Below are positions 3,626-41,770 of a DNA stretch of 47,524 nt, piece by piece. Position numbers and translations under genes: made by a program. The notes below the pieces were generated by a model that was given only the letters and a program-made list of their open reading frames with translations, made no database searches and had not been told where the DNA came from. The stretch's first letter is position 1; every line of letters begins with the position of its first letter. The stretch spans positions 1-47,524 of the forward strand of contig CAZJYT010000001.1 in assembly GCA_964550325.1 (NCBI GenBank), in the 5' to 3' direction. The DNA is from an uncultured Candidatus Saccharibacteria bacterium (GTDB taxonomy: Bacteria; Patescibacteriota; Minisyncoccia; Minisyncoccales; CAZJYT01).

Positions 3626-4623
3626 AACTTCTTTATATTCCTTGTCACTCTATTGCAGAGTATGATGAGATAAAACTCTTTTCTGAAATAGGAATAGAGG
3701 TCTTTAGCACTGGTTCTTATTTTGTTCCTTCCAAACCTGTAGACCCTAAAAGACCTCCTTTGAATATTAAGAGACATCCAGAATACGAACCTTTGGTAGG
3801 AAGCAATCCAGAAGTAATTCCCAGAGAGTTGGTAAAAAACTTTGATATTGTTTTCTTTCACTGGCTTCCTTTAAGAATTCTTAACAACTGGGAAAATCTA
3901 AAAGACAAGAAGGTAATTTTAAGAACCAATGGCCAATCAGTTTCTCAAAATGAACTTCAGATAAGAGAACTAAAAAAGAGAGGAGTTATTATAGTTCGTT
4001 ATTCTCCTAAAGAAAGAAACATCCCTTTCTATGCTGGAGAAGATGCTTTGATTAGGTTTTACAAAGATCCAGAAGAGTTTAAAGACTGGAATGGAAAAAA
4101 GAAAAGGATTATCAGTTTCTGTCAATCATTGCTAAAAAGAGGCCCTTACTGTAATGCTCCTGTTTTTCTTAAAGCAACAGAAGGATTTGAGAGAAAACTT
4201 TTTGGTCCTGATAACGAAGAACTAAAAGAAATCTGGGGAGGTTGTTTGGATTACGAGCAACTTAAAAAAGAACTTCAGGATAATAGGGTTTATTTCTATA
4301 CAGGAACAATGCCTGCTTCTTATACCTTAAACTTTATTGAAGCCTTTATGACAGGAATTCCTATTGTTTCTATAGGAAAGAAATTAGGAAATCCTTTTTG
4401 GGATTCTAATCTTGACCTCTTCGAGATTGGAGATCTAATAGAAAACGGAAAGGAAGGTTTTGTTTCAGATGATTTGACCAATCTTAAAGGATATATCAAA
4501 ATCTTACTTGATGATTATTCTTTGGCAAAAGAAATAAGTAAAAATGCAAGAGAAAAAGCAATAGAACTATTTGGTAAGGAAAAAATTAAAAGACAATGGA
4601 TAAACTTCTTCAAAAATCTATAA
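3622..4623 (+). CDS. glycosyltransferase (GT-B, GT1/GT4-like)
   Basis: C-terminal half YTLNFIEAFMTGIPIVSIGKKLGN...ENGKEGFVSDD...AREKAIELFGKEKIKRQW matches the GT4 donor-binding region. Confidence 0.7.
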   Translation: MKLLYIPCHSIAEYDEIKLFSEIGIEVFSTGSYFVPSKPVDPKRPPLNIKRHPEYEPLVGSNPEVIPRELVKNFDIVFFHWLPLRILNNWENLKDKKVILRTNGQSVSQNELQIRELKKRGVIIVRYSPKERNIPFYAGEDALIRFYKDPEEFKDWNGKKKRIISFCQSLLKRGPYCNAPVFLKATEGFERKLFGPDNEELKEIWGGCLDYEQLKKELQDNRVYFYTGTMPASYTLNFIEAFMTGIPIVSIGKKLGNPFWDSNLDLFEIGDLIENGKEGFVSDDLTNLKGYIKILLDDYSLAKEISKNAREKAIELFGKEKIKRQWINFFKNL

Positions 4624-5228
4624 AAAGGCTTGAGACTATAGAGGAATTTGTTTTTGATAAGAATTGGTGGTCAGAGAAATATGCTTCTAAATTAGATGCT
4701 CGCTTTATTACCTTTAAGACTGCTTTAAATATCTTTCTTCAAAGAAATGGGAAACTCATTCTTGAAACAGGATGTTTAAGACTTCCTGATGATTATGGTG
4801 CTGGTCAATCTACTCTTATTTTTGCTGATTTCTGCTCTCGCTATAAGAAAAAACTTATCTCTGTAGATAATGATGCTGAACATCTAAATACTGCTAAAGA
4901 GGTAGTTAAGCCTTTTTCTAATTCTGTAGAGTTCTTTTTAGAGGACTCCTTAACCTTTTTCCGAAACTACCAAGGAGAAAAAATAGACCTTCTCTATTTA
5001 GATAGCCTTGATGCTAATCCTAACAGTGAAGAAGAGACAAAAAAAGCCCAAATTCATCAACTCCGAGAGTCTCAACTTGCCTTTCCTCATCTTTCTAACA
5101 AAGCCATTGTTCTTTTAGATGATAACCAACTTCCCTATGGAGGAAAAACATATCTTTCAAAAAGATTTTTCCTTTCTAAAGGTTTTACCCTTTTAATAGA
5201 TTCCCAGCAGGTTTTGCTCTCAAAATGA
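4596..5228 (+). CDS. class I SAM-dependent methyltransferase (Methyltransf_24 / O-MTase-like)
   Basis: Motif I-like ILETGCLRLPDDYGAGQS, then LISVDND, IDLLYLDS and IVLLDD acidic-loop motifs in the order expected for a Rossmann MTase. Confidence 0.6.
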   Translation: MDKLLQKSIKRLETIEEFVFDKNWWSEKYASKLDARFITFKTALNIFLQRNGKLILETGCLRLPDDYGAGQSTLIFADFCSRYKKKLISVDNDAEHLNTAKEVVKPFSNSVEFFLEDSLTFFRNYQGEKIDLLYLDSLDANPNSEEETKKAQIHQLRESQLAFPHLSNKAIVLLDDNQLPYGGKTYLSKRFFLSKGFTLLIDSQQVLLSK

Positions 5229-6540: not shown

Positions 6541-6582
6541 TTGATTTTCTTTTCTTTTTGTGTTATTTATAAGTAAAGAGAT
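6541..6582 (+). promoter_or_regulatory. putative sigma70-like promoter with extended -10 plus conserved leader (copy 2)
   Basis: TTGATT (6541-6546), 17-nt spacer ending in TGt, TATTTA (6564-6569). 6564-6582 is identical to 7-25. Confidence 0.35.
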
Positions 6583-7204
6583 GTTGAAGAAACTTATAAA
6601 ATTCTACTATGAGAATAGCCAAGAGTTTGAAAGACAGCCCCATCTTTATGTGACTGATATTGCCCGTTGTCCTCGTGCTGTCTATTTTTCCTTTAAAACT
6701 GATGAAAGGATTCCTTTTGATGATGTAATGTCCAGAGTCTTTGATAGAGGAAGTGAAACTCATAAAAACCTCCTTTCTGTTCTTTACGAATTAGGAGTTT
6801 TAGAGGATTCAGAAGTTAGAATTCCAGAAAACAACCTTGTCTCTGGAAGGGTAGATGGAATTTTAAAGATTGATAATGAGAGATATCTTTTAGAGATAAA
6901 GACAATTAAGGATTTTGGATTTCAGAAACTCATAGAACAGGGTCCTATTAAGGCACACATAGACCAAATTCAACTCTATTTATACTTCTTAAAACTTAAA
7001 AAAGGCTTCCTTCTTTATGAGAACAAAGACAATCAGATACTTAAAGAGTATTCAGTTTCTCTCTCTTTACCCTACGCAGAGAAACTTATCTTTAAACTCA
7101 AAAGGTTAAAGTTTCTAATAGATAATGATATTCTCCCTGAAAAGACAAAAGAAACCTGGCAATGTAAGAACTGTCCTTTCAGGGAGATTTGTAAAAAAGT
7201 ATGA
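6581..7204 (+). CDS. Cas4-like / RecB-family PD-(D/E)XK exonuclease with 4-Cys Fe-S cluster motif
   Basis: N-terminal Cys (DIARCPRAVYF), GRVDGIL...LLEIKT (D...ExK), QIQLYLYF (QxxxY), C-terminal CKNCPFREIC (Cx2Cx5C). Start moved from GTG 6560 to ATG 6581, which follows the conserved leader. Confidence 0.8.
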   Translation: MLKKLIKFYYENSQEFERQPHLYVTDIARCPRAVYFSFKTDERIPFDDVMSRVFDRGSETHKNLLSVLYELGVLEDSEVRIPENNLVSGRVDGILKIDNERYLLEIKTIKDFGFQKLIEQGPIKAHIDQIQLYLYFLKLKKGFLLYENKDNQILKEYSVSLSLPYAEKLIFKLKRLKFLIDNDILPEKTKETWQCKNCPFREICKKV

Positions 7205-8077: not shown

Positions 8078-9961
8078 TCAATCCATTTCCTGTTCAATTT
8101 CCATCTTCTTTGCCTCTTTTAGAGAAACAGGTTCCAGTTTCTTCTTTCCCAAAGCAATCTTCTTCATTAAACTTAAAGGAAAGCACTTTTTAGCCTTCCA
8201 GAAGTAAAAGAACAAGCCATAAACAGGTTTTCCTGCTTCTCTTTGCTTTTTAGTCATTTCATTCTTATTTAGTTTCCTTTGAACCAATCTATAGTAGTAT
8301 CTTCCATTTAGATGTTTTCCCAAAAAGGTAATGTCATAGAAATCCAGTTCCCTCCTATGAATAACACAAGGAGCAAAGTAATCTCCAGGTAAGGCAAGCA
8401 TAACTGCCATCTCATTTTTGGTTGGATTTCCTCTTTCTCCAGGTTTAGCCCAAAGTTTCTTCACCTTCATCCAATACAAAACATCTCTCCTTTCCCAAAT
8501 CCTTTCCCCTTGTGTTGCTTCAAAGTGTTTTAAAAGGAATTCTTTTAATTTTTGCCCTTTAGGATGAAGAACTTGATAACCTTTGACTGATTGTCCTGAA
8601 ATACAGTAAATTCCATTTCTTCTAACAATTATTAAACCAGTTGGGACTGTGACAGAATAGAGTTTTCCTTTATAGAGTTCAATACTCCAATGTTTAGGTC
8701 TGACTTTTGGATACAGCCCTTTCTTTTGGGCAAAAAATAAACGGTATATTAAAGAGCCTTTTCCTGAAATTCCAGAAGAGATAGTTACCGAGTAACCAGC
8801 CAAAATTCCAATTATTTGGAGTTGGTCTCTCAAAACTTTTGAAGAGGTGTAAATTGTAAAGCCGCTACTCTTTTTATTTGGAGTCCCATCTCCCATTCTG
8901 TATCCTTTTAAGAAACTTTGAAGACTCTTTCTATCGGCTTTGAATACATAATCAGGAATAACTTTCTTTCCTTTTCCTTTTAGTTTATATTTCTTAAATT
9001 CTAAAGCCAATTTTTTGTCTCTGATTACAAAAACTCTTACCTTGTCTTTGTTTTCATACTCTTTTAGATTTGAAAAATTTTGTTTCTTTAATAACTTTCT
9101 TGCATAATCAATCTTAGTTTTTTGAGATATCTGTAATCTGTAACCATCTCTAGAATTCGCGTACACACCTCCTTCCGCAAACCAAAAACCGAGAAATTCA
9201 AACCAATCTGGATTTTCTTTTTTCCCTTTCCATTTAATCTCTCTCTTAAAATGTCCAACTTTTCCAAAGGCTTCAGCCGCTGAAAGAATTTTAAACCTTT
9301 TTTGATTTGAGGGATTCCAACGCCTTTTTCCGTCTTTAGAATAGACCCAATATCTTGGAGAAAAATACAAACGATGTGAAGGATTTACTAACAAATCTAC
9401 GTGTCTGTGCTTTATCCTAATAAGTTCTCCATTGTTTTCATAAACAATAATATCAAGAGGTTTTACATAGGAAAGAAATCCATCCTTAGAAACCTGAGCA
9501 ACTTTATCTTCTTTTGAAAGATCTTTAAAATATTTCCAACCTTTTTCAGTCAGTATTTCAGTTTTTTCATCAAAACAACCCTGGACCTTTCTATCTGGTC
9601 TCCCTTTCCATGGTGCAGTAAAGAAGGTCAACCCAAACCATGTAGTTGCTCCTTTAGGAAGAATTCTTAAATCATAGTGATACTTTCCCTCCATTTCCTT
9701 TGCTGGATCTTTACCTTCTTTTATGATTTTACACATTTCCTCATAAACCTCATCTACATTCTTAAATGTTCCTACTGGAAACCATCCATGTAGTTGTAGA
9801 GTGTATCTTCCAGGTATAAAGTCTATAAATTCAGCATGGAAAGGATCTTTTAGAGCAATCTTTAAAGCCTCCTGCAAAAGAGCAGACTTGGAAGGAATAT
9901 CAGTTCCTTCATAGACCTTGTATCCCTTCTTTGTAGGAACAAGTTTAAGTCTTTTTGCCAT
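8078..9961 (-). CDS. intein-containing protein; spliced extein ~298 aa of uncertain function (HYDLR motif faintly LigD-phosphoesterase-like)
   Basis: 627-aa ORF. Extein residues 1-128 and 458-627 flank a 329-aa Hint+LAGLIDADG insert. Extein has YTLQLHGW...KYHYDLRILPKG. Confidence 0.6.
   Translation of the reverse strand: MAKRLKLVPTKKGYKVYEGTDIPSKSALLQEALKIALKDPFHAEFIDFIPGRYTLQLHGWFPVGTFKNVDEVYEEMCKIIKEGKDPAKEMEGKYHYDLRILPKGATTWFGLTFFTAPWKGRPDRKVQGCFDEKTEILTEKGWKYFKDLSKEDKVAQVSKDGFLSYVKPLDIIVYENNGELIRIKHRHVDLLVNPSHRLYFSPRYWVYSKDGKRRWNPSNQKRFKILSAAEAFGKVGHFKREIKWKGKKENPDWFEFLGFWFAEGGVYANSRDGYRLQISQKTKIDYARKLLKKQNFSNLKEYENKDKVRVFVIRDKKLALEFKKYKLKGKGKKVIPDYVFKADRKSLQSFLKGYRMGDGTPNKKSSGFTIYTSSKVLRDQLQIIGILAGYSVTISSGISGKGSLIYRLFFAQKKGLYPKVRPKHWSIELYKGKLYSVTVPTGLIIVRRNGIYCISGQSVKGYQVLHPKGQKLKEFLLKHFEATQGERIWERRDVLYWMKVKKLWAKPGERGNPTKNEMAVMLALPGDYFAPCVIHRRELDFYDITFLGKHLNGRYYYRLVQRKLNKNEMTKKQREAGKPVYGLFFYFWKAKKCFPLSLMKKIALGKKKLEPVSLKEAKKMEIEQEMD
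8591..9577 (-). mobile_element. intein with LAGLIDADG homing-endonuclease domain (aa 129-457)
   Basis: Block A CFDEKTEILT (Cys1 codon verified at 9575-9577), block B LLVNPSHRLY, LAGLIDADG motifs FLGFWFAEGG and FLKGYRMGDG, block F/G LIIVRRNGIYCISGQ followed by Ser+1 (codons verified at 8588-8593). Confidence 0.8.
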
Positions 9962-9962
9962 A

Positions 9963-12545
9963 TCACACCTCTATAAGAACTACATTAATAAATCCCGTAT
10001 CAGGAAGATAGGTAAGTCTTGGATAGTTAGAGCGAAACATTACGCTATGAACATCAGTTCCTAAATAGAACTCTCTTTCATTTGTTGAAATCTCAATTCC
10101 CAAAACAGGAACAAGGTCTTCTGCACTTCTATCCTTATAAGCAGAATTGCTTACTTTAGCAGAAACCTTATTCCCAGTTTCAGAGGTAATAAGACTACAG
10201 AGTTGTTCAAGAGTTCTATCTTCAGTTGAGATTGTCTTTTCAGTCCCATTCATGTTTATCTTAATACAGAGATTTGTCCTATCTATGGTTACCTTACACT
10301 TTCCACTTCCAAAATAGGCAAGTTTTATCCCTGGAAGGTTTATGTTTCTGAATCCTACAAAGTTCAAAGCCTTTTGAGAAGAAGCAGCATTAAAAAGATC
10401 TTGCCAGATTTCTCTTAATTCCTTTCCTTCGTATCTAAAGGAAGTAGATTGAGTTAAACTTTCAGATGTTTCTGAATCATAAACACTTCCATCTCTCTTT
10501 TCAGCAATAGTCCCTAAAATAGTAAAGTGAAACTCTTTCTTTCCAGTTTTAGAAGACTCTAAAATGTATGTCCAAGTCAAATCACTTACCAATGGAGTAT
10601 TACTTCCATCTTCGCTCTCTAAAACTATTCCTATCTGAAAACTTGTATCTTTTACTGGATTTTCTAAATCAAACCTCGTATCTTCTCCAGGAGAGAATTC
10701 TTTTTCATATAAAGGAGTAAGTTCTTTAGAAGGTCTATAATATCTCAGTTTTATCTTTGTTCCTTGAGGAAAATCTTCTTGAAAACTCTCAATAGATTTA
10801 ACAAGTTTATTCACCTTTCTCATTCCAGCATCAAAACGAGAAGTAATAAGATAGCCACTTGAGATATATTTGTTTTCATTTCTCTTATAGAACTGTCCAT
10901 TGGTATCAACTACATAAAGATTATCCAAATAGGCAAAGATGTAACTGGGGGTAAAGGAGAGTTTTTGAACCAAAGACCATTGCATAGGAAACTTCTTATA
11001 ATCCATATTGCATCTTGCCAAATACCAGTCTGTTTCATCTTTTACCAAAGCAAAGATATCAGTTCCTCTGGTAGCAATCCCCTTACAAGAGGTAAACTTA
11101 AAGAAGGGATTAAGTTTATGGATGTTAGTAGGATAGATGTTGTATCCACTTACAAAGAAAATTCCCAGTTTCTCAACAGAGAAAATGAGAAAAGAAGAAA
11201 ATCTATCATTTTTAAAGTTATTGATTGAGGTCTCGCTACTGAAATCAGCAATCTTAACTCCTAATCCTCCACTTAAAAGAGTAAAAAGAGAACGAGAAGT
11301 AGCAAAGAATATTTGATTATAGGTCTTTGCTGCTCTTATGATCTGTCCCTCTGATTCAGGTAAGGCATAAAGGAATCCTGTTTCAGGCAAAAAGTTTTCT
11401 CCATCATCAGTTCTCTTTAGTCCTTTATCAAAGAATCCATACCCTAAATCTCCAGCATCAACCTCTAAAAAAGAAAGTCCTGTGCTTTCTCCTTTAACAA
11501 TAACGGAATCAACATACATTGTTCCTGTTCCTGAACTATTGGTATTTAAAATCCTTATCTCCTTTATAGCAGAAAAGATGATAGAGGTTATTCCTCCTCC
11601 TGTTATTTCTACATCATCTATCCAAACCTGGAACTTATGGCTTGTTCCATCCCAACTTACCTTAATCTTATACCAGGTATCAGCAGTATAGGTCTTATCT
11701 GTAGGAAAGTTTTTATAACTTCCATCATAATACTTAAAATGCCCATCATTAGCAGCAACAATAAAATAAAGAGAAACATTATCAGAAGACAGAGGAATAA
11801 AGGGATAATGCCATTTGTTTGTTTCTCCAAATCTAAAGTATCCTTCAAAACTTCCTTTATTAGACAAAGCAATCTTCTTTTTAAGATAATAAGGAGCTCC
11901 TGAAGCCTTTGCTGCATATTGCCCCTCATAAACAACAGAACCCTGAACTTGCCAGCCTTCCTTTGCATCCCATTTGTTTAGATTTCCATCTTCAAAGTCA
12001 TCCTCAAATTCAATTTCCAGAAAGGTTATATCAGTTTCTGTATAGTTTCCCTCTTTTTTAGTTCTCTTTAGAAGTTTTGAAGTTCCTCTACAGGCATATT
12101 GGTTTCCTCTCATCTCATAGAAGTCAGTAATTCCTGTAAATCCTGTTCCTAAAGAGGTAAGAGAAGAACCATCCCAAAGATAGATATCTCCATCTTCAGT
12201 AGCAATATGAATGCCATCAGAGAGTTGTTTTGCTACTCTAACAGAACTTCCTACTGAAATTCCTTCCAGTTTCTCTAAAGGTCTTTCCAGTTTCAGTTCT
12301 CTGGGAATGGTAATATCCAATCCCACTCCAAAGGCATATTCAGAAGGCCTTTCTAAATAGAGTTGTCCAAATCCATCAGAGAATTCTTGTTGTCCATTTG
12401 TTTGCCAGAAGTCTAAATCAGAATAGGCCAGTCTTCCAGTAGCAAATCTGGTCCCAAACAAAGGTGCTGGGGTCTCTCTATAACTGTTCTTATCTATCAT
12501 ATACCCCTTATAATCCAAAAGAATGTCGTATCTTTGATTATCCAT
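9963..12545 (-). CDS. large virion (tail/nozzle/receptor-binding candidate) protein with inserted LamG/ConA-like lectin domain
   Basis: 860 aa. aa ~178-352 (11490-12014): FEDDFEDGNLNKWD...YAAKASG...WYKIKVSWDG...FQVWIDD...MYVDSVIV is typical of Laminin_G_3 jelly rolls. Flanks look beta-rich. Confidence 0.5.
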   Translation of the reverse strand: MDNQRYDILLDYKGYMIDKNSYRETPAPLFGTRFATGRLAYSDLDFWQTNGQQEFSDGFGQLYLERPSEYAFGVGLDITIPRELKLERPLEKLEGISVGSSVRVAKQLSDGIHIATEDGDIYLWDGSSLTSLGTGFTGITDFYEMRGNQYACRGTSKLLKRTKKEGNYTETDITFLEIEFEDDFEDGNLNKWDAKEGWQVQGSVVYEGQYAAKASGAPYYLKKKIALSNKGSFEGYFRFGETNKWHYPFIPLSSDNVSLYFIVAANDGHFKYYDGSYKNFPTDKTYTADTWYKIKVSWDGTSHKFQVWIDDVEITGGGITSIIFSAIKEIRILNTNSSGTGTMYVDSVIVKGESTGLSFLEVDAGDLGYGFFDKGLKRTDDGENFLPETGFLYALPESEGQIIRAAKTYNQIFFATSRSLFTLLSGGLGVKIADFSSETSINNFKNDRFSSFLIFSVEKLGIFFVSGYNIYPTNIHKLNPFFKFTSCKGIATRGTDIFALVKDETDWYLARCNMDYKKFPMQWSLVQKLSFTPSYIFAYLDNLYVVDTNGQFYKRNENKYISSGYLITSRFDAGMRKVNKLVKSIESFQEDFPQGTKIKLRYYRPSKELTPLYEKEFSPGEDTRFDLENPVKDTSFQIGIVLESEDGSNTPLVSDLTWTYILESSKTGKKEFHFTILGTIAEKRDGSVYDSETSESLTQSTSFRYEGKELREIWQDLFNAASSQKALNFVGFRNINLPGIKLAYFGSGKCKVTIDRTNLCIKINMNGTEKTISTEDRTLEQLCSLITSETGNKVSAKVSNSAYKDRSAEDLVPVLGIEISTNEREFYLGTDVHSVMFRSNYPRLTYLPDTGFINVVLIEV

Positions 12546-15500
12546 ATTTCTTCTTTATTTCTTCGATTATCTTTTTCATCTTGGTTTTTCTCCAAATAGC
12601 AAATTTAGGTAACCATTTCTTCCATTCTTCTAATGTCCCCCCAGAAGCAAGGTAGATTTCTTTAGCCAAAGCCAAAGTATCTGGTTTTCCAATAAGAACT
12701 GTGGTTTGAGTCTTTGAAGGAACCTTAAGGTATTTTGCTTTCTGGCTTTTAGGTCTTGGAGCATACCACCCTATAGAACCATCAGGTCTGATAGTAATGT
12801 GTTGAACATTTACCCTTATAACATCTCCTGGTTTTGCTTTTACCTCTTCTTGAGCGTATGTCTGTCCAATATAGGTTCCATCTCCTAAAACACAATGGAA
12901 GATAGGTAATCCTGTTTTTGTTCTCTCAACTCCTATGACTTTAGCATCAATGTCATAGAGTTTCTTAAATTTGAAAGATAGATGGGTAGCCCAGTAAGAA
13001 GCCTCTGTAGATCTGATAAAGGCTCCTTCATTAGACTGCATTTTCTTTATAGCATCAGGAATCTGATTTCTCTTTACTACCACAGAAGGAGTTTTAAAGA
13101 CATATTTGGATTTTAGGTTCTTTAAGAGTTTGCCTAAAAGGAAACTTCTATCACTGAAGGGTTTATTTGATAAGTCTTCTCCATCTAAATAGAGTAAATC
13201 CCAAACAGGAAATCTTACGCTTTCCAATTCTTCTTTAGTGGGTTTCTTTTTAGAATGGAGATAACCTACAAGGTTTTGTCTTGGTATCTTTTCAGCAATG
13301 ATTTCTCCCACTATTAGAAAGTCGTGTCTTACCTTTGATAAGGTTTTCACTATCGGCTCTATTCTTGAGTTAGAAATCTTTCCTCCTGTTTCTGAAAAGA
13401 ATCTAATGTCTTTTCCTTTCTTCCAGCAGTAAGCAAGCATCCCATCCCACTTGGGACTAACATCATAGGTTCCTTCAGGAACAATCTCTTTTAGTCTCTC
13501 AATACTAAAGACCTCATTGGAAGACAGAGCCTTTTTTTCAGGTTTATGAGGAGGAGGAACCACAAAAGGCTTTATTTTTATCTTTTTTAAATCTCCTTCT
13601 TGAATTGAAGCCTCTCCTGTAACTTTTATTAGTTCTTCTTTAAGTTCCTCAATCAATTTCTTATTTTTATCTTCTCCTTTTTGGAAGGTTTGAACTCCTT
13701 TTTTAAGTTTGTATTCAATAGATTTTGGGAATGGATAGAAGGTAAAGAGATAGTAATAGAGAGTTCTTTGAGGAAATCCTTTCCACCATCTCTTTGCCTC
13801 TTTTCTTGAAACCCTGTGCCATTTCTGTGTCTTATCAAAGTCTAAATTCCTGAATATAGCCTCTATCTTAATTAAACCATAAACCTTATCTCCTGCTAAT
13901 CTGAATATCTTTCCCACAATGTCAAACTTTTTGCTTTTTACAATCAAAAGTTTATCTCCTTTTAGAATCATTTTAGCGTGAGGTTCTACAAGGTAAAGAA
14001 TAGGAAGGTTTTCATAAACAGATTTGTAGGGAATAGTTTTTCTGTATTTTAAAGTAAGACGAATAAGATTTTGTATCTCTTTCAGTTTTTCTTCTTTAGA
14101 AGAAGCCAAGGTTTCCTCTTCTTTCTTCTTCTCTTCTACTAGTTTTCTTATTCTTACCAAATCAGAGTAATCTGCCAAAGCAAAGGAAACCCTTACCACA
14201 TCCTTTGGTAAAACTCTTACTTCTATTTTCCCTTCAGGAGTTTTAACCAGTTCGTAAATATCAGTTTGAGATTTAACTCTCTTTTCAATTTGAGAAATAA
14301 TGTCTTCTCCTTTTATTTCCTGTGCATATTTTTCTTTAAGTTCCAATTCTTGTCTTAACATCTCCTCTCTTTCTTTCTCTATTTCTCTTATCAAGGTATT
14401 TACTCTCTCCTCTCCAAGTTCTCTTAAGGCTCTCCTTTTAGAAAGCAACCCTCCTTTGTATTTTCTTAAGACCAATGCTGATAGCTTCTCTGGATCTTCA
14501 TTACTAAATCCAATAAACTTCTCTTTTGGTCTAAAGATTGCCTTATTAAAGTATTCTGAAATGGTTTTGCCATCAAAGGCAAGTTTATTCTCTTTTAGGA
14601 ACTTATTTAGGTAATACTCATCTATTTCTTCAAAGAATCTCAATAAAAGATTTGCTTTTGACTTTATTCTCCTTAAGGCTCCAGAGAAAACCAAACTCAT
14701 TGCTCCTTTTTCTCTTACAGAGCCTCCTTTTCCTAAAAAGTAATCTAAAATCCCTATATGCTTTTGAATTTCAAGGTCTTGATCTTGAATAAGTTTTAGT
14801 TCTTCTACTGGAATTTCTGGAGGTTTAATAACATCTATATTCCCATCTCTACTCTTTTCCAAAACAATGTTTCGAAAGTTCTCTCTTAAGGCAAAGTTTA
14901 AAAGATCCTGATTTATCCTTGCTTCTTTATCTATGGTTATTATTCCAGAACACATTCTCTTAAAGTGGTTGCTTAAAAACTCTTTAAATTCCTGATTCTC
15001 TTTAAGTGTAGGATAGATTTTCAAAACAAGAGGAATAGGATAAAATGTTTCCAATGTCTCTCTATCAGCACAAACCCTAAATGGGTAATCTCCATCAAAA
15101 GGAAACTCTTTTACAATCTCATTTAGTCCTTTAGGAATCCAGTATTTCTTTCTATCATCCTTGGAATAAACAACAAAAACACAAATCTCATCATCAGGCT
15201 TGTAATAACTTAAAATTCTGTTTTGTTTGTCTTTTTCTAAAAGAGAAGCGAATTTAGAAGCAGTAAGATAGGTTTTTCTTACTACAAAAGGCTGTTTTTC
15301 TAAAAAAGGTTCTTTTGGATGTCCTACAAAGAATTCAGAGGGTTTTATTATCTCATATTTGTCTTTATTAAGGTAAGCAACAACTAATCCCTCAGTAAGG
15401 AGATTTATAGTCAGGTTCTTTATAAGAGAGTCTTTTTTTGATTTATGATGTATTTCCTTTAAGCGGAGTTCTAAAAACTCGGCAAAAGAGAGATAGGGTT

Positions 15501-15771
15501 CTTGTTCTGGTTCTGTTTCTACATCTATTACCGATTTGCTATTGTCAATTTCTTCAGCAAAGTTAAGAATCAGATAGTTAATTGGATTTTGCTTGAATAT
15601 CTGATCTATAGAGAGTTTAGAATCAGGTTCATAGACACTTGCTGGGCTCTCAAAAAAGTTTGCAAGGTCTGGGTTTCCAAAAAGAAAAGTAAATACAGCC
15701 TGCTTTATGGTCTTATTATAGGCTAAACTTACAGACTCATTTTTTATTACCTCTGAGACTATTTTTTCCAT
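12538..15771 (-). CDS. multidomain protein: N-terminal ~560-aa domain (portal candidate by size and position only) + ASCH-like domain + ATP-dependent DNA ligase
   Basis: 1077 aa. Ligase motifs are listed in the domain feature. ASCH-like aa ~585-700 (LYLVEPHAKMILKGDKLLIVKSKKF...YGLIKIEAIF...YYYLFTFYPF). 3-nt gap to the giant ORF and 8-nt overlap with the next ORF. Confidence 0.7.
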   Translation of the reverse strand: MEKIVSEVIKNESVSLAYNKTIKQAVFTFLFGNPDLANFFESPASVYEPDSKLSIDQIFKQNPINYLILNFAEEIDNSKSVIDVETEPEQEPYLSFAEFLELRLKEIHHKSKKDSLIKNLTINLLTEGLVVAYLNKDKYEIIKPSEFFVGHPKEPFLEKQPFVVRKTYLTASKFASLLEKDKQNRILSYYKPDDEICVFVVYSKDDRKKYWIPKGLNEIVKEFPFDGDYPFRVCADRETLETFYPIPLVLKIYPTLKENQEFKEFLSNHFKRMCSGIITIDKEARINQDLLNFALRENFRNIVLEKSRDGNIDVIKPPEIPVEELKLIQDQDLEIQKHIGILDYFLGKGGSVREKGAMSLVFSGALRRIKSKANLLLRFFEEIDEYYLNKFLKENKLAFDGKTISEYFNKAIFRPKEKFIGFSNEDPEKLSALVLRKYKGGLLSKRRALRELGEERVNTLIREIEKEREEMLRQELELKEKYAQEIKGEDIISQIEKRVKSQTDIYELVKTPEGKIEVRVLPKDVVRVSFALADYSDLVRIRKLVEEKKKEEETLASSKEEKLKEIQNLIRLTLKYRKTIPYKSVYENLPILYLVEPHAKMILKGDKLLIVKSKKFDIVGKIFRLAGDKVYGLIKIEAIFRNLDFDKTQKWHRVSRKEAKRWWKGFPQRTLYYYLFTFYPFPKSIEYKLKKGVQTFQKGEDKNKKLIEELKEELIKVTGEASIQEGDLKKIKIKPFVVPPPHKPEKKALSSNEVFSIERLKEIVPEGTYDVSPKWDGMLAYCWKKGKDIRFFSETGGKISNSRIEPIVKTLSKVRHDFLIVGEIIAEKIPRQNLVGYLHSKKKPTKEELESVRFPVWDLLYLDGEDLSNKPFSDRSFLLGKLLKNLKSKYVFKTPSVVVKRNQIPDAIKKMQSNEGAFIRSTEASYWATHLSFKFKKLYDIDAKVIGVERTKTGLPIFHCVLGDGTYIGQTYAQEEVKAKPGDVIRVNVQHITIRPDGSIGWYAPRPKSQKAKYLKVPSKTQTTVLIGKPDTLALAKEIYLASGGTLEEWKKWLPKFAIWRKTKMKKIIEEIKKKYG
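12742..13569 (-). other. ATP-dependent DNA ligase catalytic + OB domains (aa ~735-1010 of ORF 12538-15771)
   Basis: Motif I SPKWDG (Lys774), III FLIVGEII, IIIa FPVWDLLYLDGEDL, IV EGAFIRS, V LSFKFKK, then an OB-like region (DAKVIGVER...GDVIRVNVQHIT...GWYAPRP). Confidence 0.85.
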
Positions 15772-15774: not shown

Positions 15775-18700
15775 TTAGTAGAAAGAGCCAATATAACCTA
15801 TGAGAGGCTTCTTAAAGCTTCTTCCTTCTAAAAATGCCAATTCTTTGATTGCTCTGTCAAGTTCCTTTTTAAGTAAAGGAAGTCTTTCCAAGTCTTTCTC
15901 TTTAAGTCTATTTATAGCAATCATCCTTTGTTCAAAGTATCTTTCCCAATCAGCCTTATTCCAGTTTCCTTTATCTCTCCATATCTTGTATTTCTTAAAG
16001 ATTCTTCTCACTCTCTCTTCAACATCACTGGGTAAATTGTATCTTCCAAATTTACTTATCTTCTCTAAAGCCCATCTTAAATCTGGTTGGAATCTCATCT
16101 CTATTCTTTCTCCTTCTTCAATAAATCTTCTTAAGGGATATTTAACAAGATAAGACTTTTCAGGATGAACAGTAAGATACTTAGACTTTGCCCAATCAGG
16201 AAGACTTCTGAAATAGAGAACCCCAAACAAAGGATTTTCCTTTGCTAATCTTATCCAGTTTTCCATTAGCATCCTGTATATCTTTTCCTTAAACCAGTAT
16301 CCTTCATCTGTTTCTGGAACCTTCCAGAACTCCTTAAAGAGTTTCTTACTTACCAATCTACTTAACAACTCACAAGGCTCCTTCTGAAGTATTTCTCTTA
16401 CCTCATTTACCCTCTTTTCCCAAGGTTTGAACCTTCTTCTGTCAAAGAAATAACTTCTTGGTAAAGCCCAAATCTCCCAGAAGTCTAAAAGTTCTGGATG
16501 CTTGTTAAGAAATTCTTCTCTCTCTCCTAAAGTCTCCTTTCTAAAGTATTCCTCCTGTAGGTCAATGAGTTTTGAGAAAAGAGGATGCTGCTTCTTTCTA
16601 AAGTATTCCTTTAGTTCTGGGTTTTCTTTTAGATAGTTCTTTCTTTCTTCTAAAGTTCCTAAAGAGAAGTAGTGTTCTATCATTCTTTCTAATGTGGTTT
16701 TTACTCCTTCCTCTTTCTTGAGATATCTAAAGATTTCTATATTCTCCTCTCTAAATCTTTCTCTCATTAAATAGAACCTTCTTAAACTCTCTAAACTCTT
16801 TCTATCAGGTTTAGATTTTACATCAGGAGCCTCTAAAAGAAGTTTCTGATACTGATAATACTTCTCATAAGCCTCTCTTCTCTTTGGTTCCAGATCTTCC
16901 TTAAAGGATTCTCTTAATTCTGGATGTTCTTCAAGGAAAAGGAACCTTTTAAGATTGTCTTCAAATGTTTCTTTGGGCAAACTGAAATACTCCATTCTAT
17001 CCAAATAGAGTTGCTTCTTCTCTGGATGTTTTTCAAAGAATCTCTCTCTGTATTTCTTATTGTCTTTTCTCCAGAAGTAAGCCTGCCATAAGTCCCAATT
17101 CTCTATCCTTGCCAATGCAGAAAGTCTCTTCCAGAATAGCAGATAGTTGTATGTATCTGGATCCTTCTTTTTAAGTTCCTCTCTTAAAGGCTTAAATTCA
17201 GGCTTCCAGAAGAGTTTAAATCTCTCATCTATCTTTCCTTCTTTGAAGAGTTTATAGAATTCCTCGTAATACTGAATCTTCAATCCTCTTAAGTATGGAT
17301 CTTTCTTTAGATAGGTTTTCTTAAACATAGGAGAAGTTTTAAGGAAAGCCTCTATAAATTCAATAAAGTTTTCCTTTTTTAGAAGTTTATTCCAAGTCTT
17401 ATAGTATTCTTCCTTTTCAGGATGAGTTTTGAAATACATTTCTCTTTCCTTCTTATAGGAAGAATCATAGAAAACTCTCTTCCAGTTTTTCCAATCTCCT
17501 TTGAAAGCAAAGTTAATCCATCTTCCAAGCCATTCATAATATCTTTTCTTTTCTGGATGTCTCTTATAGTATCTCTCTCTGTATTTCTTATTCCTCTCTG
17601 CAAAGAACTCATTTCTCCATCCTTCCCAGTTCTCTTTTTCTGCTAAAAGGGATAATCTTCTCCAAAAGAGTAGATAATTATACTCCTCTGGCTTTCTTTT
17701 CTTCAAATCTTCTCTCAATTCTTTAAATCTATCCTCCCAAAAGAGATCAAAGGTTTCATCTACCTTTCCTTGATCAAGGAGTTCTATAAACCTCTTATAA
17801 TATTCAATCCTTAGACTTCTAATAGCAGGATCTTTCTTAAGATAGAGTTTTCTAAACCATCCTTCAGTTGCTAAGAAGGCTCTAACATAGTCTTCAAACT
17901 CCTTTGTCTTAATGATTTTAATCAATTCAGCCCACTTTTCATAGTATTTTTTCTTCTGTGGATAGTGCGAAAAGTAGGTTTCTCTCTGTTTTTTGTATTT
18001 AGAATCCCAGAATACTTTCTTCCATCCTTCCCAGTCTTCTTTAGAAGCAAAACTCACCCATTTCTGTATCCATTCGTAATATCTCTTCTTTTCTGGATGC
18101 CTCTTAAAGTAAGTTTCTCTCTGTTTGTTGTATTTTCCAGACCAGAAGATATTTCTCCAGGCATTCCATTCATCTCTTGAAGCCTCTCTCATCCAGTTCA
18201 TTACCCAATCCAAATAAGCAAAGGATTCTGGCTGGTCTTTAGCAAAAGCCTCTTTTGCCTTCTTATTCCTTGGATTAAACCACCATCTTAAGGCAAAATT
18301 GGTAAAGATTCCTCTCTTTCGGTTTTCATTATCCTTCTTAAATCTCCTTAAGAGTTCTCTCTTAAAGGGATAATAGAGTCTCTTTAAGGGATGATTAAAG
18401 AAGTAATAACTGATAAACCAAGATGGCATCTGATAGAACCTCTCATAGTAGTCATATCCTCCAGTTCTTTCCATCTCTCTTATCAATTTTTCCCAGAGTT
18501 CTAGGTATTTCTTAATCCTTCTCTCAAATTCCTTATTATAGGCTGCTTTTCCTCTTTCCCATCTTGCCTTTTCTTCTTTTGTAAGAACCTGGTCTAAATA
18601 GCGGAGAGCCTTTTCATAGATTCTTCTCTTTTCTTCTTTTGGAAGTAAAGCAAAATCAGAGGGGAAGAAACTAAAGAATCCTGCTAACTTTATTGAGTAA

Positions 18701-21700
18701 CGAGCATCTGCTTCTCTCTTTCTCTGCTTTTCTAATCTTGACATCATTAAGTAATCGTGGTAATTCTGCTCTGCATTTCTTTCTGCATCTTTCAAAAGAC
18801 TTTCAGGAAGTTTGTATCTCTCTAATAGAATCTCAAGTTGTTCTTTAGAAAGAATCTTAAGGTTTCCTTCAGAATCAAAGAGTTCATAGTATAACTGGTC
18901 ATAATCAAAGATAGGCCAAGGAATATCAATTCCTAAGGCATTGTATCTTAAGTGCTTTTCTTTTTGTTCCTTCTTTGTTCCTTTAGGAAGTTTCTTTAAA
19001 ATTTCATAGACAATAGATCTTAATTTCTGATTCTGAACAAAGATATGTCTTCTAACAGCAAAAGGAGAAAAGGAGTTTTTAAAGTAATCTTCAAACTCCT
19101 TCTTTAATTCAGGATGTTTCTCAAGGAATCTTGCTCCTGCTCCTTTTTCTTCTTCTTCTAATCTGAAGTAGAGATTCACAATAAATCTTTGCTGATACTG
19201 CTTCCAGAGTTTCTGTCTCTTAATAGGATCCTTTTCTGTAAGTATCTTATAAATTGTCCTTCTTGTGGCTACTCGATGGAGTTTTTCTAAAAGTTGAGGA
19301 TCCCTTATCAAGGCTTCTTTCATCCTTTTATCTATCCAATCATAGATCTCCCAGACAAAAGGATCTCTTTTTCTAATTCTTTTAGCAAAGTCATAATAGA
19401 TATCGTGAGGAATTGAGAAATAGAACTGGGAAGCAATAGCCCAGTCATCCCATTCTAAGATGTTCAAACCCAATCCCTTCAAAAACTCTCTAAAAGAAGG
19501 GTTCTTAAAGATAGACAGGTCTTCTAGAGTAGTTCTTCTAAATGAATCTTGTAACTTAAAGAATACTGGAGCAAAAGGAACACTCTGAAGGATAGAGAGC
19601 CAAGGTTTCTGCCACCATTTCTTTGCCTCCTTTCTTTCTTTTTTATAGATTTCTAATCTTTCTATTTCCTCATCTGAATATCCTCTCTCTTTGTATTCTG
19701 TTTCAAAATCCCAGAAATCCTTTCCTGTTGCTGTTTCTATGGCAGAGGAAATAGCAGGATGCCAACCCAAACCTGCAAATAGATGTAATGGATTGTGGAT
19801 AAACTTTCTGGCTACTTCATCAGGCTTAAAGAATAGATCCAAAACATCAAATACAGAGAAGGGAAGACCAATCCAGAGGTCTGTTCCTGGAATCCTTACC
19901 CGAGGAACCAACTTTGCCCATTCTGGTAGATTTCCTTCTTTTTCTGCTTCTTCTAATGCCTTAAAGAGATAGTAATAGGCTCCATAGACCTTAAGACCAT
20001 ACCTTTGAGGAATCTCACGAGCAAAGAGTTCAAGGTTTTTTACATTAAAGGCAAGGAAAGGAAAGAGTCTTCTTAAACTCCTAAAGACCAAATTCATATC
20101 ACTGTAATCAAACAGATACTTCTTTGTCTCCATTGCTGCTTTGGCAATATCATAACCTCTCTTTGCTAACAGAGAATCAAAGAGAATCAGTCTTCTTGCC
20201 TCTTCAAGGAATACAGAGAAAAGTTGAACTTCGTGATTAAAGAGTTTTAAGAATCCTAAATCCTTTGCCAAGGTTTCAAAGGGTTTTCTCAGTTTTTCAG
20301 GTAAAACCTCTTTGGTGCTCTTTGGAAGCCATCCATTTCTAATTAGCATTTTCATTCTTGCTCCTACGTTTCCTGGGTCTTCGAATAACCCAGACAATCC
20401 TCCTGACATAGCAAACTTCTTTACATCCTCAAATTCTTCTGGCTCTATAAGACCTCTTACTCTTCTAATACCTAATTCTGAATACCACTTTTTCAAACTC
20501 TCTGGTAGATATTCTTCCCATTCTCGGATTGGTTTATATCTTGATATTTCTTCACTTAATCTTTTTATTTTCTCTTTCATACTTTCTCCTTCCTTCCAGA
20601 ACTCAATTCCCATCTTCTTAAGAACAGGTTTTAGTTTCTCCCATTTTCTCTGAACTAAAAGCACCCTTGCTGTTTCTCTTAGTTTTAGTCTCTCCCAGTC
20701 AGAAAGAACCTTTGGAATGAAACGAGCAAATACCGCTTCGTGAAGGTCTAAGGTCTTTAGGAAGTTAGATAGGGAGATTCCAGACCAGGTTGCTCTCTCA
20801 AGATCTCCAGCCAGGTTTCTAACATGCCAACCTAGTCTGTAATAGAGGACCCAAGCAATCCATAAGGAAGTAAGACCCCAATAACTCTTCTTTATAAATG
20901 AAAGTGTTTTTCCTACTGTGGCATAGGTTTTGGCAAAAATCTTCCAGAACTCTTTCTGTGCTCTTGGACCAAAACCAACAGGAACTTCTTCTAAAATCTT
21001 TTCACAAATCTTCTCTTCCAGTTCTTCAAAGGTCCTTCGAGGTGCTGTTTTTCCACTTGAAGCAACCATCCAGGTTTCTAACTCACTCTCAATAGAGGAG
21101 AAAAGCTCTTTTATCTCTCCTTCAGGGATTTTTTTCTCTTTTCCAAATTCTAAGAGTTCCTCATAAAATCTCTTCTTTCCCTGTTTTAGATTCTCAACAA
21201 CAGGTTCAAGTTTGTATTGGAGAGAAATATCAGAAGATAAGGCATAGAGTTTCTGTTTGAGAAGTTGTTTATCTCTGATTTTTAGATATTTCTTTAGTCT
21301 ATCTACAATTTTATCTACAAACAGAGGAAATCCAGAGATGAGATTTACAGAACTCTTAAAGACATAGGTTAATATTTTCTGTTCCAAGGCAATGATATTT
21401 GCCATCTCTCTTGTAATTCTTTCTTCAGACCATCCTTGTTTCTTTAATGCCTCTCTTGTTATTCGGTGCGCTCTTTCAAATATCTTCTCTGCTTTTCTCA
21501 TTATCTGTTTAGAAAAGAACTGTCCTAACCATCTCTGATAGAACTCTCTTGTGCTTATCTTTCCTAAAAGCAGAGAGTTAAGTAAGAAGGAAGGAGGTGC
21601 TCCGAAAGGACCCTCTGAGATACACTCAACAGAGTCCCGAATGGTTCTTAAAGTAATGTCTCTTATGTATTCTCTAAACTCGGATTGGGTTCTGAACTTA

Positions 21701-32652: not shown

Positions 32653-33720
32653 CTAGCTGGCCTCAGCAATGTTGTAGAGCATTGCAATCTTTCTGCAGGC
32701 ATTTGTTGTCAAGGCTCCTCTGGTTGTTGCTACCAACCGGCTTACATCTGAACCTGTAATGTTGTGCAGGTTAGTGAAGCCAGTTGATTTCCAAGCCTGG
32801 AGTACTCTCCATCTGAGTCTTCTTTCATCAATCATAAAGGCCTTACCTGAGGGGCAATAAGGATCAGCAACCATTGGAATACCCTTAAAGTAGAAGGCCT
32901 CAAATCCTCCATCTAAAACTCTTCTCTTTCCTCCTTCTGTAGCAGCAAGCAAGAGTCTTACAATAGTTCCTCCATCAGCAGCAACCTTAACAGTGCTAAT
33001 CTGGTCTTCAAACTTCTCAAGAACTTCAGGAGTTGTCACAATAATGGTTGGAGGCTGAGCATCTACATACTTCTTGATTCTGTAGTAGCAGTAGTTCAAG
33101 TTTGGATAATCCAAGGCTGCTGAACTTACATCCTTTGTCCATCCTCTCCACCAAGAATAAGTGGATTTATCAATTCCTCCTACAGTTCCAGTTGAGGCTA
33201 CCATTGCCTGTAAACCAACCATATATTTAGTTCCATCAGCATGGTTGGCATACAGGTCATTGGCCATAGCCTCCTGGATGTTTCTTACAGCCTCTCTGGT
33301 CTTTGCTGCCAAAACATCAAATCTTGCTGCCTTTGACATCAAAACAAGGTCTCGGTTGTCAATTGCCAAGGCAAGCCTGTAGTTCTTAAAGACATACTGA
33401 GCACCCTTTATCTTATCAGTTGAAGTAGATAAAGGAGCAAACTCAGCAGTCTCCCCAGTATTGTAAGCCCCACAGGTTGCCTGTCCTGGAGTTGCAATCT
33501 GCTCTACTAAAAGAGGCTCTACTACAGAAACTCCCTCAACGCTGTCTACGATTCTTGCTCCTGGATATTCCCCTTCTCTTGCTACTCTGAAAATTCTGTA
33601 GAGCAAAGGGGAAGTTCTATAAATCTGGTTAGTCAATCTTGGCTCAATTACTCTCTTAAAAGCAGTTCCCATCTCAGACAAAACCTTATCAAATTCTGAA
33701 CTGTAGGGATATGTTTCCAT
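32653..33720 (-). CDS. major capsid protein (HK97-fold candidate)
   Basis: 355 aa. A/G/T/V-rich, unlike the K/E-rich neighbours. Sits directly downstream of an acidic scaffold-like gene and is followed by a strong terminator. Overall resemblance to phage MCP families; no search run. Confidence 0.7.
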   Translation of the reverse strand: METYPYSSEFDKVLSEMGTAFKRVIEPRLTNQIYRTSPLLYRIFRVAREGEYPGARIVDSVEGVSVVEPLLVEQIATPGQATCGAYNTGETAEFAPLSTSTDKIKGAQYVFKNYRLALAIDNRDLVLMSKAARFDVLAAKTREAVRNIQEAMANDLYANHADGTKYMVGLQAMVASTGTVGGIDKSTYSWWRGWTKDVSSAALDYPNLNYCYYRIKKYVDAQPPTIIVTTPEVLEKFEDQISTVKVAADGGTIVRLLLAATEGGKRRVLDGGFEAFYFKGIPMVADPYCPSGKAFMIDERRLRWRVLQAWKSTGFTNLHNITGSDVSRLVATTRGALTTNACRKIAMLYNIAEAS

Positions 33721-36870: not shown

Positions 36871-36900
36871 ATGCTAAAGTAGAGAGAAAAATCTTGTCAA
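36871..36900 (-). promoter_or_regulatory. putative sigma70-type promoter for the minus-strand virion block
   Basis: Minus strand reads TTGACA (36900-36895), 18-nt spacer, TAGCAT (36876-36871). About 25 nt of leader with AAAGG precede ATG 36846. Confidence 0.4.
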
Positions 36901-36902
36901 GT

Positions 36903-41143: not shown

Positions 41144-41770
41144 ATGCCAACACTAAAAACCATAACTGAAAGCATTTTGAGAAGACTTAAAGATGAGGAT
41201 GCCCAGTATTTAGACAAGATTGCTCTAAAAAAGAGAATAAAGGCTCAGATTAAGGAGCTCTATCCTTATGTTGTTATTAAAGCAACTGAAACTACAAACT
41301 TTCCTACAACCTCTCCTTATATAGTGAGTCTTCCTTCTGCTAGAGAGGTTATTGAGGTTTGGCTTTTAGATTCTAATGACAAGGAAGTAAGGCAGATTTA
41401 TGACTTCTCCTTTGATAAAGAAACAAGAAAACTCCATTTCAGTTCTGCTCCTGCTTTTACCTGGAATTTAGGGATTACCACAGGTTCAAAGATAAAGATT
41501 GTTTATGCAAAAGACCCTACAATTGCTTCTTTAGAAGATGATGAAGAGATTAACATTGATTCTGCAGCGACAGATCTATTAGAACTTTCAGTTATTCGCT
41601 CTCTAATAGAAGAAGAATTAAACTCAAGAGCAACAAGACCTGCTTATCCAAAAGTCTTCCCTGCTCTTTCTCCTGCTGCTCTCACTGGCCTCCTTAACTA
41701 TTACACTTACAAGATTAGAGAAAGAAAAAGTGAAATAGGAGAACTTAACAAGGTTTATATCATTAAATGA
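41144..41770 (+). CDS. hypothetical protein, possible head-completion/connector protein
   Basis: Follows terL. Start moved from TTG 41108 to ATG 41144 (MPTLKTITESILRRL...). No firm motif. Confidence 0.45.
   Translation: MPTLKTITESILRRLKDEDAQYLDKIALKKRIKAQIKELYPYVVIKATETTNFPTTSPYIVSLPSAREVIEVWLLDSNDKEVRQIYDFSFDKETRKLHFSSAPAFTWNLGITTGSKIKIVYAKDPTIASLEDDEEINIDSAATDLLELSVIRSLIEEELNSRATRPAYPKVFPALSPAALTGLLNYYTYKIRERKSEIGELNKVYIIK

Follow-up and report, generated by a model that had tools for sequence, protein, structure and literature searches.

A predicted phage portal protein that carries an ASCH-like domain and an ATP-dependent DNA ligase in a single gene

The window analysed here, a stretch of 47,524 nucleotides (nt) deposited as contig CAZJYT010000001.1, comes from an uncultivated tailed phage. 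The key finding from our analysis is that one of its genes (12538-15771, minus strand) encodes three things in a single open reading frame (ORF): a portal, an ASCH-like domain and an ATP-dependent DNA ligase. There is hardly any doubt that this architecture is correct, and the fusion is apparently both conserved and undescribed. As to its function, the explanation that we slightly favor overall is that the ligase remains tethered to the portal and seals breaks in the phage genome. The gene and its parts, given in amino acids (aa) of the protein, are as follows.

12538-15771, minus strand: portal-ASCH-ligase gene, a single ATG-initiated ORF of 1077 aa
14113-15771, minus strand: portal domain, aa 1-553 (family profile covers aa 3-553; AlphaFold2 model and Foldseek)
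14137-14265, minus strand: small conserved alpha/beta element, aa ~503-545, after the crown-like helices (consensus KVLVKV...D...V.FLL.D.S..VLIE)
14014-14112, minus strand: Lys/Glu-rich charged linker, aa 554-586 (low model confidence at aa 546-557)
13675-14013, minus strand: ASCH-like (PUA-like beta-barrel) domain, aa 587-699 (model pLDDT, the predicted local distance difference test, >90; local hidden Markov model E=1e-38)
13540-13674, minus strand: helix and linker between the ASCH-like and ligase domains, aa 700-744 (helix aa ~704-718, then lower-confidence coil)
12979-13539, minus strand: ligase adenylation (nucleotidyltransferase) domain, aa ~745-931 (PF01068, motifs, Foldseek)
13450-13452, minus strand: codon of Lys774, the predicted adenylylation site in motif I KWDG (motif alignment)
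12739-12978, minus strand: ligase oligonucleotide-binding (OB) fold domain, aa ~932-1011 (beta strands aa 932-1002, pLDDT ~90)
12541-12690, minus strand: conserved C-terminal helical hairpin, aa 1028-1077 (helices aa 1033-1042 and 1047-1076)

The fusion is not an artefact of assembly, because the same ORF is present in at least four assemblies and its architecture recurs in diverged relatives. A ~100% identical 1077-aa protein is encoded on contigs of 47,524, 50,076, 21,736 and 10,180 bp (NCBI and ENA), and at least ten relatives with less than 50% identity show the same arrangement of portal, ASCH-like domain and ligase. An earlier reading of this DNA from its sequence alone (hereafter the original prediction) had allowed for a frameshift splitting the ORF; identical, unbroken ORFs in independent assemblies and diverged relatives rule this out. 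That prediction had also described the immediate neighbors correctly: the 5120-aa ORF on one side ends at 15775, leaving a gap of 3 nt, and the 860-aa ORF on the other starts at 12545, giving an overlap of 8 nt. The gene is thus packed among minus-strand genes in a string that it shares with the major capsid protein, and this tight packing points to late, structural expression.

Separate expression of the ASCH-ligase part was considered and rejected. The only internal start candidate in the linker is a TTG at codon 555, with a GAGG 5 nt upstream that falls within a purine-rich stretch where such matches are expected. Slippery heptamers are uninformative, since 11 of them occur along this AT-rich gene (one in the linker, at codon 574), and promoter-like and terminator-like sites are no more frequent than in shuffled sequence.

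The identification of the N-terminal domain as a portal rests on its fold, on synteny, and on the lack of any competing ORF. An AlphaFold2 model of aa 1-570, built on alignment A3 of ten sequences (nine relatives and the window protein), reached a pLDDT of 65.5 and a predicted template modelling score (pTM) of 0.49, with low values at aa 546-557. When the model was compared with the PDB by Foldseek, the top 50 matches were all phage portals (E=9e-12 to 7e-8, probability 1.00), including those of Pa223, Pan3, NF5, SPP1 gp6, SU10, KHP30, T7 gp8, N4, SaPI1/80alpha, PaP3 and Sf6. These alignments span 440-680 columns, which is most of the portal model, at TM-scores of only 0.35-0.5. Against BFVD, all named top matches were portals or head-to-tail connectors, with E down to 1.9e-16. 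The original prediction had proposed a portal in the first ~560 aa and had named a domain without a portal or virion fold as the outcome that would speak against it; the fold is that of a portal.

Sequence comparison places the domain at a distance from all curated portal families. The window protein has no Pfam or PHROG portal match, aa 1-560 have no Pfam match of any kind, and a PDB profile search with the portal alignment came back empty; sub-threshold Pfam matches were seen in one relative each (SU10_portal, E=1.8e-4; P22_portal, E=0.011). Judged in this way, the N-terminal part is a sequence family of its own within the portal fold. A word-indexed homolog search with the whole protein returned the protein itself alone, and with the portal alignment nothing. 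A HMMER search with aa 1-740 against 1.84 billion representatives found ten proteins that match aa ~60-560 (26-34% identity, 499-1515 aa long) and more than 250 that match aa ~585-700 alone.

Synteny was surveyed in 33 related loci from IMG/VR and JGI/ENA metagenomes. A terminase homolog lies directly upstream of the portal gene, on the same strand, in all 28 loci with upstream sequence, at a distance of -60 to +400 nt in 25 of them, and these terminases match Pfam GpA_ATPase (GpA-type large terminase). The window is the exception, as its terminase (39414-41111, plus strand) is unlinked from the minus-strand portal gene and the portal block instead follows the giant ORF; with this adjacency broken and the block on the opposite strand, the window genome appears to be rearranged. 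The portal, ligase and ASCH profiles match none of the other ORFs in the window, in keeping with the original prediction that the window holds no second portal candidate. Portals form a dodecameric ring at the one capsid vertex through which DNA enters and leaves, and by analogy with this established topology the protein should form a ring of up to twelve subunits per particle.

The linker that follows the portal domain is short in the window protein (~33 aa) compared with those of its relatives, which are 60-130 aa long, Pro/Glu/Lys-rich and disordered. An AT-hook-like TRGRP motif recurs in the linkers of the related proteins P0027, P0028, P0029 and P0031, and is absent from that of the window. 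Beyond the linker, an ASCH/PUA-like module had been expected at aa ~585-700, and here too the original prediction was right: a profile of 38 copies of the domain (aa ~584-698) matches TTHA0113 (PDB 2DP9/1WK2) with E=7e-5 over 109 of 116 positions, corresponding to aa 587-699. TTHA0113, from Thermus, is an accepted ASCH protein with the GxKxxExR motif, and domains of this class fold into beta-barrels and bind nucleic acids or nucleosides (PMC6803910). In TTHA0113, Lys23 and Glu26 are required for the hydrolysis of N4-acetylcytidine on tRNA, and the characterised ASCH enzymes depend on a Lys-Glu dyad (bioRxiv 10.64898/2026.02.27.708502).

In the window protein, the signature reads G605-D-K607-L-L-I610-V-K612, that is, G-x-K-x-x-I-x-K as opposed to GxKxxExR. 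The Gly and the Lys are kept throughout the subfamily (K607 is invariant in the 38 copies), Ile or Val takes the place of the Glu (or Thr), and Lys that of the Arg; further conserved positions are His598, His652, Glu658 and a Trp-Trp pair. No Pfam model, that of ASCH included, matches aa 560-740 even at E<=10. We call the domain ASCH-like because of these replacements and this failure, and the assignment rests on the match to TTHA0113, not on YqfB of E. coli, for which an approximate query sequence gave the right topology without significance (probability 0.3%). The middle domain is most probably a nucleic-acid-binding barrel. It is kept by all ~25 complete members of the portal family, including those that have no ligase, which argues that it has a role on the portal itself.

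By motif and by model, the C-terminal part is a complete minimal ATP-dependent DNA ligase. Pfam PF01068 (DNA_ligase_A_M) matches aa 768-929 with E=1.9e-13 (51 bits against a cut-off of 26.2 bits), and phrog_114 (ATP-dependent DNA ligase) matches with E=1.4e-17; the NCBIfam models NHEJ_ligase_lig and DNA_lig_bact give weak matches far below their cut-offs. The motifs listed in the original prediction are all in place and align with their counterparts in human LIG1 in a HMMER alignment: motif I KWDG (aa 774-777, with Lys774), motif III LIVGEI (aa 819), motif IIIa FPVWDLLYLDG (aa 854), motif IV EGAFIR (aa 915) and motif V LSFKFKK (aa 931). For motif VI there is a candidate, W-Y-A-P-R-P-K at aa 1002-1008, whose exact residues are tentative, and the OB fold itself is present. 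Among known viruses, the closest sequence is found in the archaeal virus ANMV-1, whose ligase is 26% identical.

A model of aa 571-1077, built on a 44-sequence alignment, is confident (pLDDT 88.4, pTM 0.75) and shows, in order, the ASCH barrel, a helix, the adenylation domain, an OB-type beta domain, a disordered stretch (aa ~1012-1025) and the hairpin. Foldseek matched this model to ATP-dependent DNA ligases of Thermococcus, Pyrococcus, Prochlorococcus, phage T4, human (LIG1 and LIG3), African swine fever virus (ASFV) and mycobacterial LigD, with E from 4.7e-15 and 310-460 aligned columns. Alignments to the T4, Prochlorococcus, LIG1 and LigD ligases cover both the adenylation and the OB domains, which, together with the confident model, bears out the OB domain that had been predicted. 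The terminal hairpin appears to be a hallmark of the fusion: besides the window, L004 and L021, its profile matches six portal-ligase proteins among 149 representatives, and its sole match outside the portals is the ASCH-ligase protein P0163. We regard it as likely that the ligase is catalytically active.

The distribution of the domains across the family suggests how the fusion arose. Every complete ORF of the portal family (~25, of 790-860 aa) consists of portal, linker and ASCH-like domain, to which the ligase and hairpin are added in the window protein and in L004 (1467 aa, with an intein), L021 (1156 aa), P0027, P0029, P0031, P0032, P0036 and P0039. The homolog survey that the original prediction had proposed thus finds the three-domain fusion again in eight other proteins or loci. 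In P0028 (1042 aa) the ligase is decayed, with ERMNG at motif I, and the protein ends at motif V without an OB domain; P0028 may be a snapshot of ligase loss, or simply reach a contig end. A rough neighbor-joining tree of the portal domains places the lineages with a ligase deep and as a paraphyletic group, and those without one in two or three nested clades, a pattern that fits an ancestral portal-ASCH-ligase with later losses of the ligase, the ASCH domain staying behind.

Selection seems to have acted on catalysis, since the ligase is better conserved than the portal, its motifs are kept and inteins have settled in two of them. In relatives, the ASCH-ligase part is 41-49% identical to that of the window protein, versus 24-29% for the portal part, and motifs I, III, IIIa, IV and V are intact in nine of the ten ligase-bearing proteins. 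Inteins typically occupy functionally critical sites, and here one splits motif I of P0027 (K|intein|CDG), and P0029 and L004 each have one within motif V. This is an intein-rich phage lineage more generally, as the large terminase of several relatives also contains one (e.g. L002, 7254-9764; L003, 7428-9980).

The pairing of ASCH-like and ligase domains is not confined to portals. When the 149 best representative proteins that contain this ASCH-like domain were scanned, a ligase domain was found in 61, of which 54 lack a portal. In a sample of ten ASCH-like proteins, PF01068 was present in seven and Lactamase_B_2 (a metallo-beta-lactamase fold) in six, in varying order, and one had a Dam-type methyltransferase. 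Because the pair is so widespread outside portals, the portal lineage seems, from these sequences, to have captured a pre-existing ASCH-ligase unit. Our analysis thereby also defines a ligase-associated ASCH-like domain that occurs in hundreds of protein clusters.

The ligase does not come and go alone. Two further genes, one for a small nucleotidyltransferase-like protein and one for a protein of ~300 aa, are both present in all five ligase-bearing lineages with downstream sequence (the window, L004, L021, L036 and L037/L038), and both are missing from all 14 ligase-less loci for which at least 3 kb of downstream sequence is available. Their positions in the window, with those of the two virion and packaging genes mentioned above, are as follows.

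41767-42108, plus strand: Pol-beta-type minimal nucleotidyltransferase-like protein, 113 aa (GG-x9-DIDI motif; assigned by motif only)
8078-9961, minus strand: ~300-aa protein gene, a 627-aa ORF including a 329-aa LAGLIDADG intein (motifs FTLQLHGW and HYDLRI)
32653-33720, minus strand: major capsid protein (phrog_9953, E=1.6e-22, and a weak SU10_MCP match; homologs in 15 related loci)
39414-41111, plus strand: large terminase (phrog_675, E=4.5e-64; 32% identity, E=8e-79, to the L004 terminase, which has a Pfam GpA_ATPase match)

Homologs of the nucleotidyltransferase-like protein (113-120 aa) are encoded at 9958-10317 in L021, 12772-13122 in L004, 13375-13707 in L036 and 12038-12397 in L038; the gene directly follows the portal gene in L036 and L037/L038 and stands one small ORF further on in L004 and L021. 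Homologs of the ~300-aa protein occur in L004, L021, L036 and L038. In the window this protein is interrupted at aa 129-457 (Cys129 to Gln457, with Ser at +1) by an intein that ends in Gly-Gln instead of the usual His-Asn. Intein-free homologs align seamlessly across the junction KVQG|S, LAGLIDADG_3 and intein-type PHROG matches agree, and the L038 homolog has a related intein that starts ~25 residues further upstream. The HYDLR motif had raised the possibility of a LigD-type phosphoesterase, and this was rejected, as no similarity was found in Pfam at E<=10 or in PDB searches with single sequences and profiles.

Between these two genes, L038 has a third (12394-13155), which encodes a 253-aa metallo-beta-lactamase-fold protein with an intact HPHKDH motif. 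The window ORF at 42105-42767 (plus strand) resembles it over the N-terminal ~80 aa and looks degenerate, with THLFDL at the motif. In relatives the genes usually follow one another as terminase, portal-ASCH-ligase, nucleotidyltransferase-like gene, optional metallo-beta-lactamase-fold gene and ~300-aa gene, with the capsid gene further on; relative to this, the block from the terminase to the ~300-aa gene is rearranged in the window. The ligase, nucleotidyltransferase-like, ~300-aa and sometimes metallo-beta-lactamase-fold genes therefore make up a set of three or four that is gained and lost together, which suggests that uncultivated phages have an uncharacterised pathway for processing nucleic-acid ends.

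How, then, might a ligase on a portal work? In solved portals (P22, SPP1, T7, phi29 and others) the C-terminal crown faces the capsid interior, and for this reason an extension at the C-terminus would be expected inside the head; by analogy with that topology, the ASCH-ligase module is likely to lie physically within the capsid. Up to twelve such modules would then surround the inner mouth of the DNA channel on flexible tethers. Lys774 of the ligase could receive its AMP in the producing cell, and a pre-adenylylated enzyme would be capable of one sealing event without further ATP. The ASCH-like barrel presumably holds nucleic acid, as may the TRGRP linker motif of several relatives, and the enzyme could in this way close nicks in the phage's own DNA, or join its annealed cohesive ends, at the portal vertex. 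Sealing might take place during or after DNA packaging; or, perhaps, cleavage of the linker lets the module depart with the DNA at the outset of the next infection. We propose only tentatively, and at somewhat less than even chances, that the ligase works on the phage genome when this is packaged or delivered, and not as a free enzyme of the cytoplasm, its substrate and timing being hypothetical.

Several points weigh against a ligase that works from the portal. As long as it is attached to the portal, the module cannot pass into the next host, and we found no protease gene and no conserved cleavage motif that would free it. A ligase fixed to the crown reaches only nearby or passing DNA, and packaging moves DNA fast. 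Twelve appendages of ~58 kDa each, ~0.7 MDa in total, must fit in the head. The ASCH-like domain is without the catalytic Glu of the characterised ASCH enzymes, the ligase has been lost in whole clades and is hence dispensable for portal function, and the portal model is only moderately confident (pLDDT 65.5). Finally, the two co-occurring proteins are separate and presumably soluble, and would be easier to reconcile with a cytoplasmic pathway.

A cytoplasmic pathway is indeed the chief rival explanation, although we consider it unlikely. In this scenario the fusion would be a device for expression or recruitment: late in infection, protein that has not yet assembled would repair or mature replicated DNA before packaging, together with the nucleotidyltransferase-like, ~300-aa and sometimes metallo-beta-lactamase-fold proteins, and the copies in the virion would have no further role. 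Phage T4, which needs its ligase to make packageable DNA, provides the model. The partner genes are separate ORFs, the ASCH-ligase unit occurs without a portal in 54 other protein clusters, and the topological problem of an enzyme locked in a capsid is avoided. Moreover, no other ligase and no recognisable DNA polymerase were found among the window ORFs scanned, which makes the portal-fused enzyme the only joining enzyme recognised in this phage. However, the fusion persists in lineages with no more than 20-30% identity between their portal domains, even though phage genes split easily, and the ASCH domain is retained by the portal of every lineage without a ligase, which suggests a function in the context of the portal. 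Expression in a late structural string, and the usually low amounts of portal, would also suit genome-wide repair poorly.

An extension of the portal-tethered reading, which we think rather unlikely, is that the virion carries a repair kit: twelve pre-adenylylated ligases on the portal would mend breaks in the genome, perhaps with the nucleotidyltransferase-like and ~300-aa proteins and, in some of the phages, the metallo-beta-lactamase-fold protein. If true, mending could take place at entry or in a hot, damaging environment, or could undo nicking by host defences. The phage would then be a bacterial-virus counterpart of ASFV with its virion-borne repair enzymes, and its portal the first to be enzymatically active.

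Less likely than the cytoplasmic explanation, and improbable in our view, is that the portal domain serves as an encapsidation signal. A phage or host protease would cut the linker, and the free ASCH-ligase would be ejected with the DNA to circularise the genome or to repair nicks left by heat damage or by host nicking defences. The long, disordered and variable linkers of the relatives would suit such a release, and late expression is what one would expect of proteins needed at the very start of the next infection. The gene also sits in the head module, home of internal or ejected head proteins and of MuF-type cargo carriers (PMC3482391, PMC8954989). In addition, the terminase is of the lambda GpA type, and lambda's yields cohesive ends that need ligation, if the type of end can be read from the terminase family. 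Set against this are the short linker of the window protein, the same want of a protease gene or cleavage motif, the need for a folded 58-kDa module to unfold in order to traverse the portal channel, and the host ligase, which is normally enough for cos ends.

A purely structural role, in which the exapted ASCH-ligase part would have no catalysis to perform and would bind DNA as a plug, anchor or internal core to organise or hold the end of the packaged DNA, is highly improbable: ASCH alone suffices in most family members, P0028 has its decayed motif I and truncated ligase, and the ASCH-like domain lacks its catalytic Glu, but this leaves unexplained why the catalytic motifs are intact in nine of ten ligase-bearing proteins across deep divergence, why inteins sit in motifs I and V, and why conservation is higher in the ligase part than in the portal part.

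A ligase tethered to the portal would be new in several respects. Portals have been regarded as passive or mechanical, acting as assembly nucleator, motor dock, pressure sensor and valve, and to our knowledge no described portal carries an enzyme. The window protein resembles tailed-phage portals (SU10, N4, T7 gp8, P22 gp1, SPP1 gp6, Pa223 and Pan3) in the fold of its N-terminal ~550 aa, in being encoded once per genome and, in relatives, in following the large terminase; it differs from them in ~520 extra C-terminal residues, which comprise the ASCH-like domain and the DNA ligase. The nearest large interior-facing extension of a portal is the C-terminal barrel of P22, which is a coiled coil and not an enzyme.

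As a ligase, it has the adenylation and OB core and motifs I-V of minimal and viral enzymes (Chlorella virus, T7 gp1.3, T4 gp30, Lig E, the LigD domain and ASFV), and, unlike LIG1-type ligases, no large alpha-helical DNA-binding domain. Those minimal enzymes stand alone or belong to repair proteins, and the ligases of T4 and T7 are expressed early, whereas the window ligase is fused to a virion protein in a late structural string, with an ASCH-like domain before it and a family-specific helical hairpin after it. As an ASCH protein, it shares with the known members (TTHA0113/TthASCH, YqfB, TRIP4, EOLA1 and ZmASCH) a resemblance to TTHA0113 over the whole length of the domain and the Gly and Lys of the signature, and departs from them in the replaced Glu/Thr and Arg and in belonging to a subfamily that is specifically associated with ligases.

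There are parallels for enzymes that travel in virions. ASFV packages Pol X, a ligase and an AP endonuclease, and its ligase and very small Pol-beta-type nucleotidyltransferase repair the viral genome. The ASFV ligase is among the structural matches to our model (6imk, E=5e-12), and in the phage, too, a ligase goes together with a gene for a small Pol-beta-type nucleotidyltransferase-like protein. Unlike the window phage, ASFV is a eukaryotic virus and its proteins are separate, none of them tied to a portal; that the phage nucleotidyltransferase-like protein is packaged in the virion is pure conjecture. Among phages, MuF fusions are predicted to be packaged in heads (PMC3482391), and the internal or ejection proteins of podoviruses are a related concept (PMC8954989). 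Like carriers of the MuF/SPP1 gp7 type, the window protein would bring an enzyme into the capsid by way of the portal vertex and is encoded in the head module. Those carriers are, by contrast, separate portal-binding proteins, usually with a toxin, and here the cargo is of a repair type and sits on the portal itself; we found no sequence relationship between MuF/gp7-type proteins and the window protein. In bacteria, ligase-associated damage response and LigD systems combine an ATP-dependent ligase with a metallo-beta-lactamase-fold exonuclease, a phosphoesterase or a polymerase; here, too, such a ligase recurs with a metallo-beta-lactamase-fold domain or gene, but the phage set is without the Lhr helicase, LigD polymerase and LigD phosphoesterase domain of those systems.

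In the literature, of which most subscription journals were not covered, we found no portal-ligase or portal-ASCH fusion and no phage ligase described as virion-borne or ejected. If our reading is correct, this would be the first portal with an enzymatic chemistry and the first phage ligase built into the particle. It will be interesting to explore whether packaged DNA can be repaired or joined within the capsid, how much folded cargo the crown can hold, and whether fusion to the portal is a means of loading enzymes. If thermostable, a ring-forming ligase of twelve copies could also have practical uses.

The window is probably not quite the whole phage genome, given that it has no terminal repeat and that the 50,076-bp ENA contig of the same phage, with the same gene order, is 2.5 kb longer. 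The 860-aa neighbor of the portal-ASCH-ligase gene, a putative tail-type protein in the original prediction, has no match in Pfam, PHROGs or NCBIfam, nor by tblastn against 50,697 phage genomes. The neighbor on the other side occupies one third of the contig:

15775-31137, minus strand: giant ORF, 5120 aa (weak N-terminal peptidoglycan-binding domain)

The first 3000 aa of the giant protein have no tblastn match in the same 50,697 genomes. L036, a 67-kb phage contig, has a positional counterpart of 5212 aa (from 18754 onward, after the capsid gene and three small genes), with no BLAST-detectable sequence similarity between the two. The other recognisable genes of the window encode a Methyltransf_24 methyltransferase, a Cas4/RecB-like exonuclease, two family-1 glycosyltransferases and an Amidase_3 endolysin with a long coiled-coil tail; together they occupy 4596-5228, 6560-7204 and 36894-37964 on the plus strand and 43587-44666 and 45053-46213 on the minus strand. 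The endolysin points to a bacterial host.

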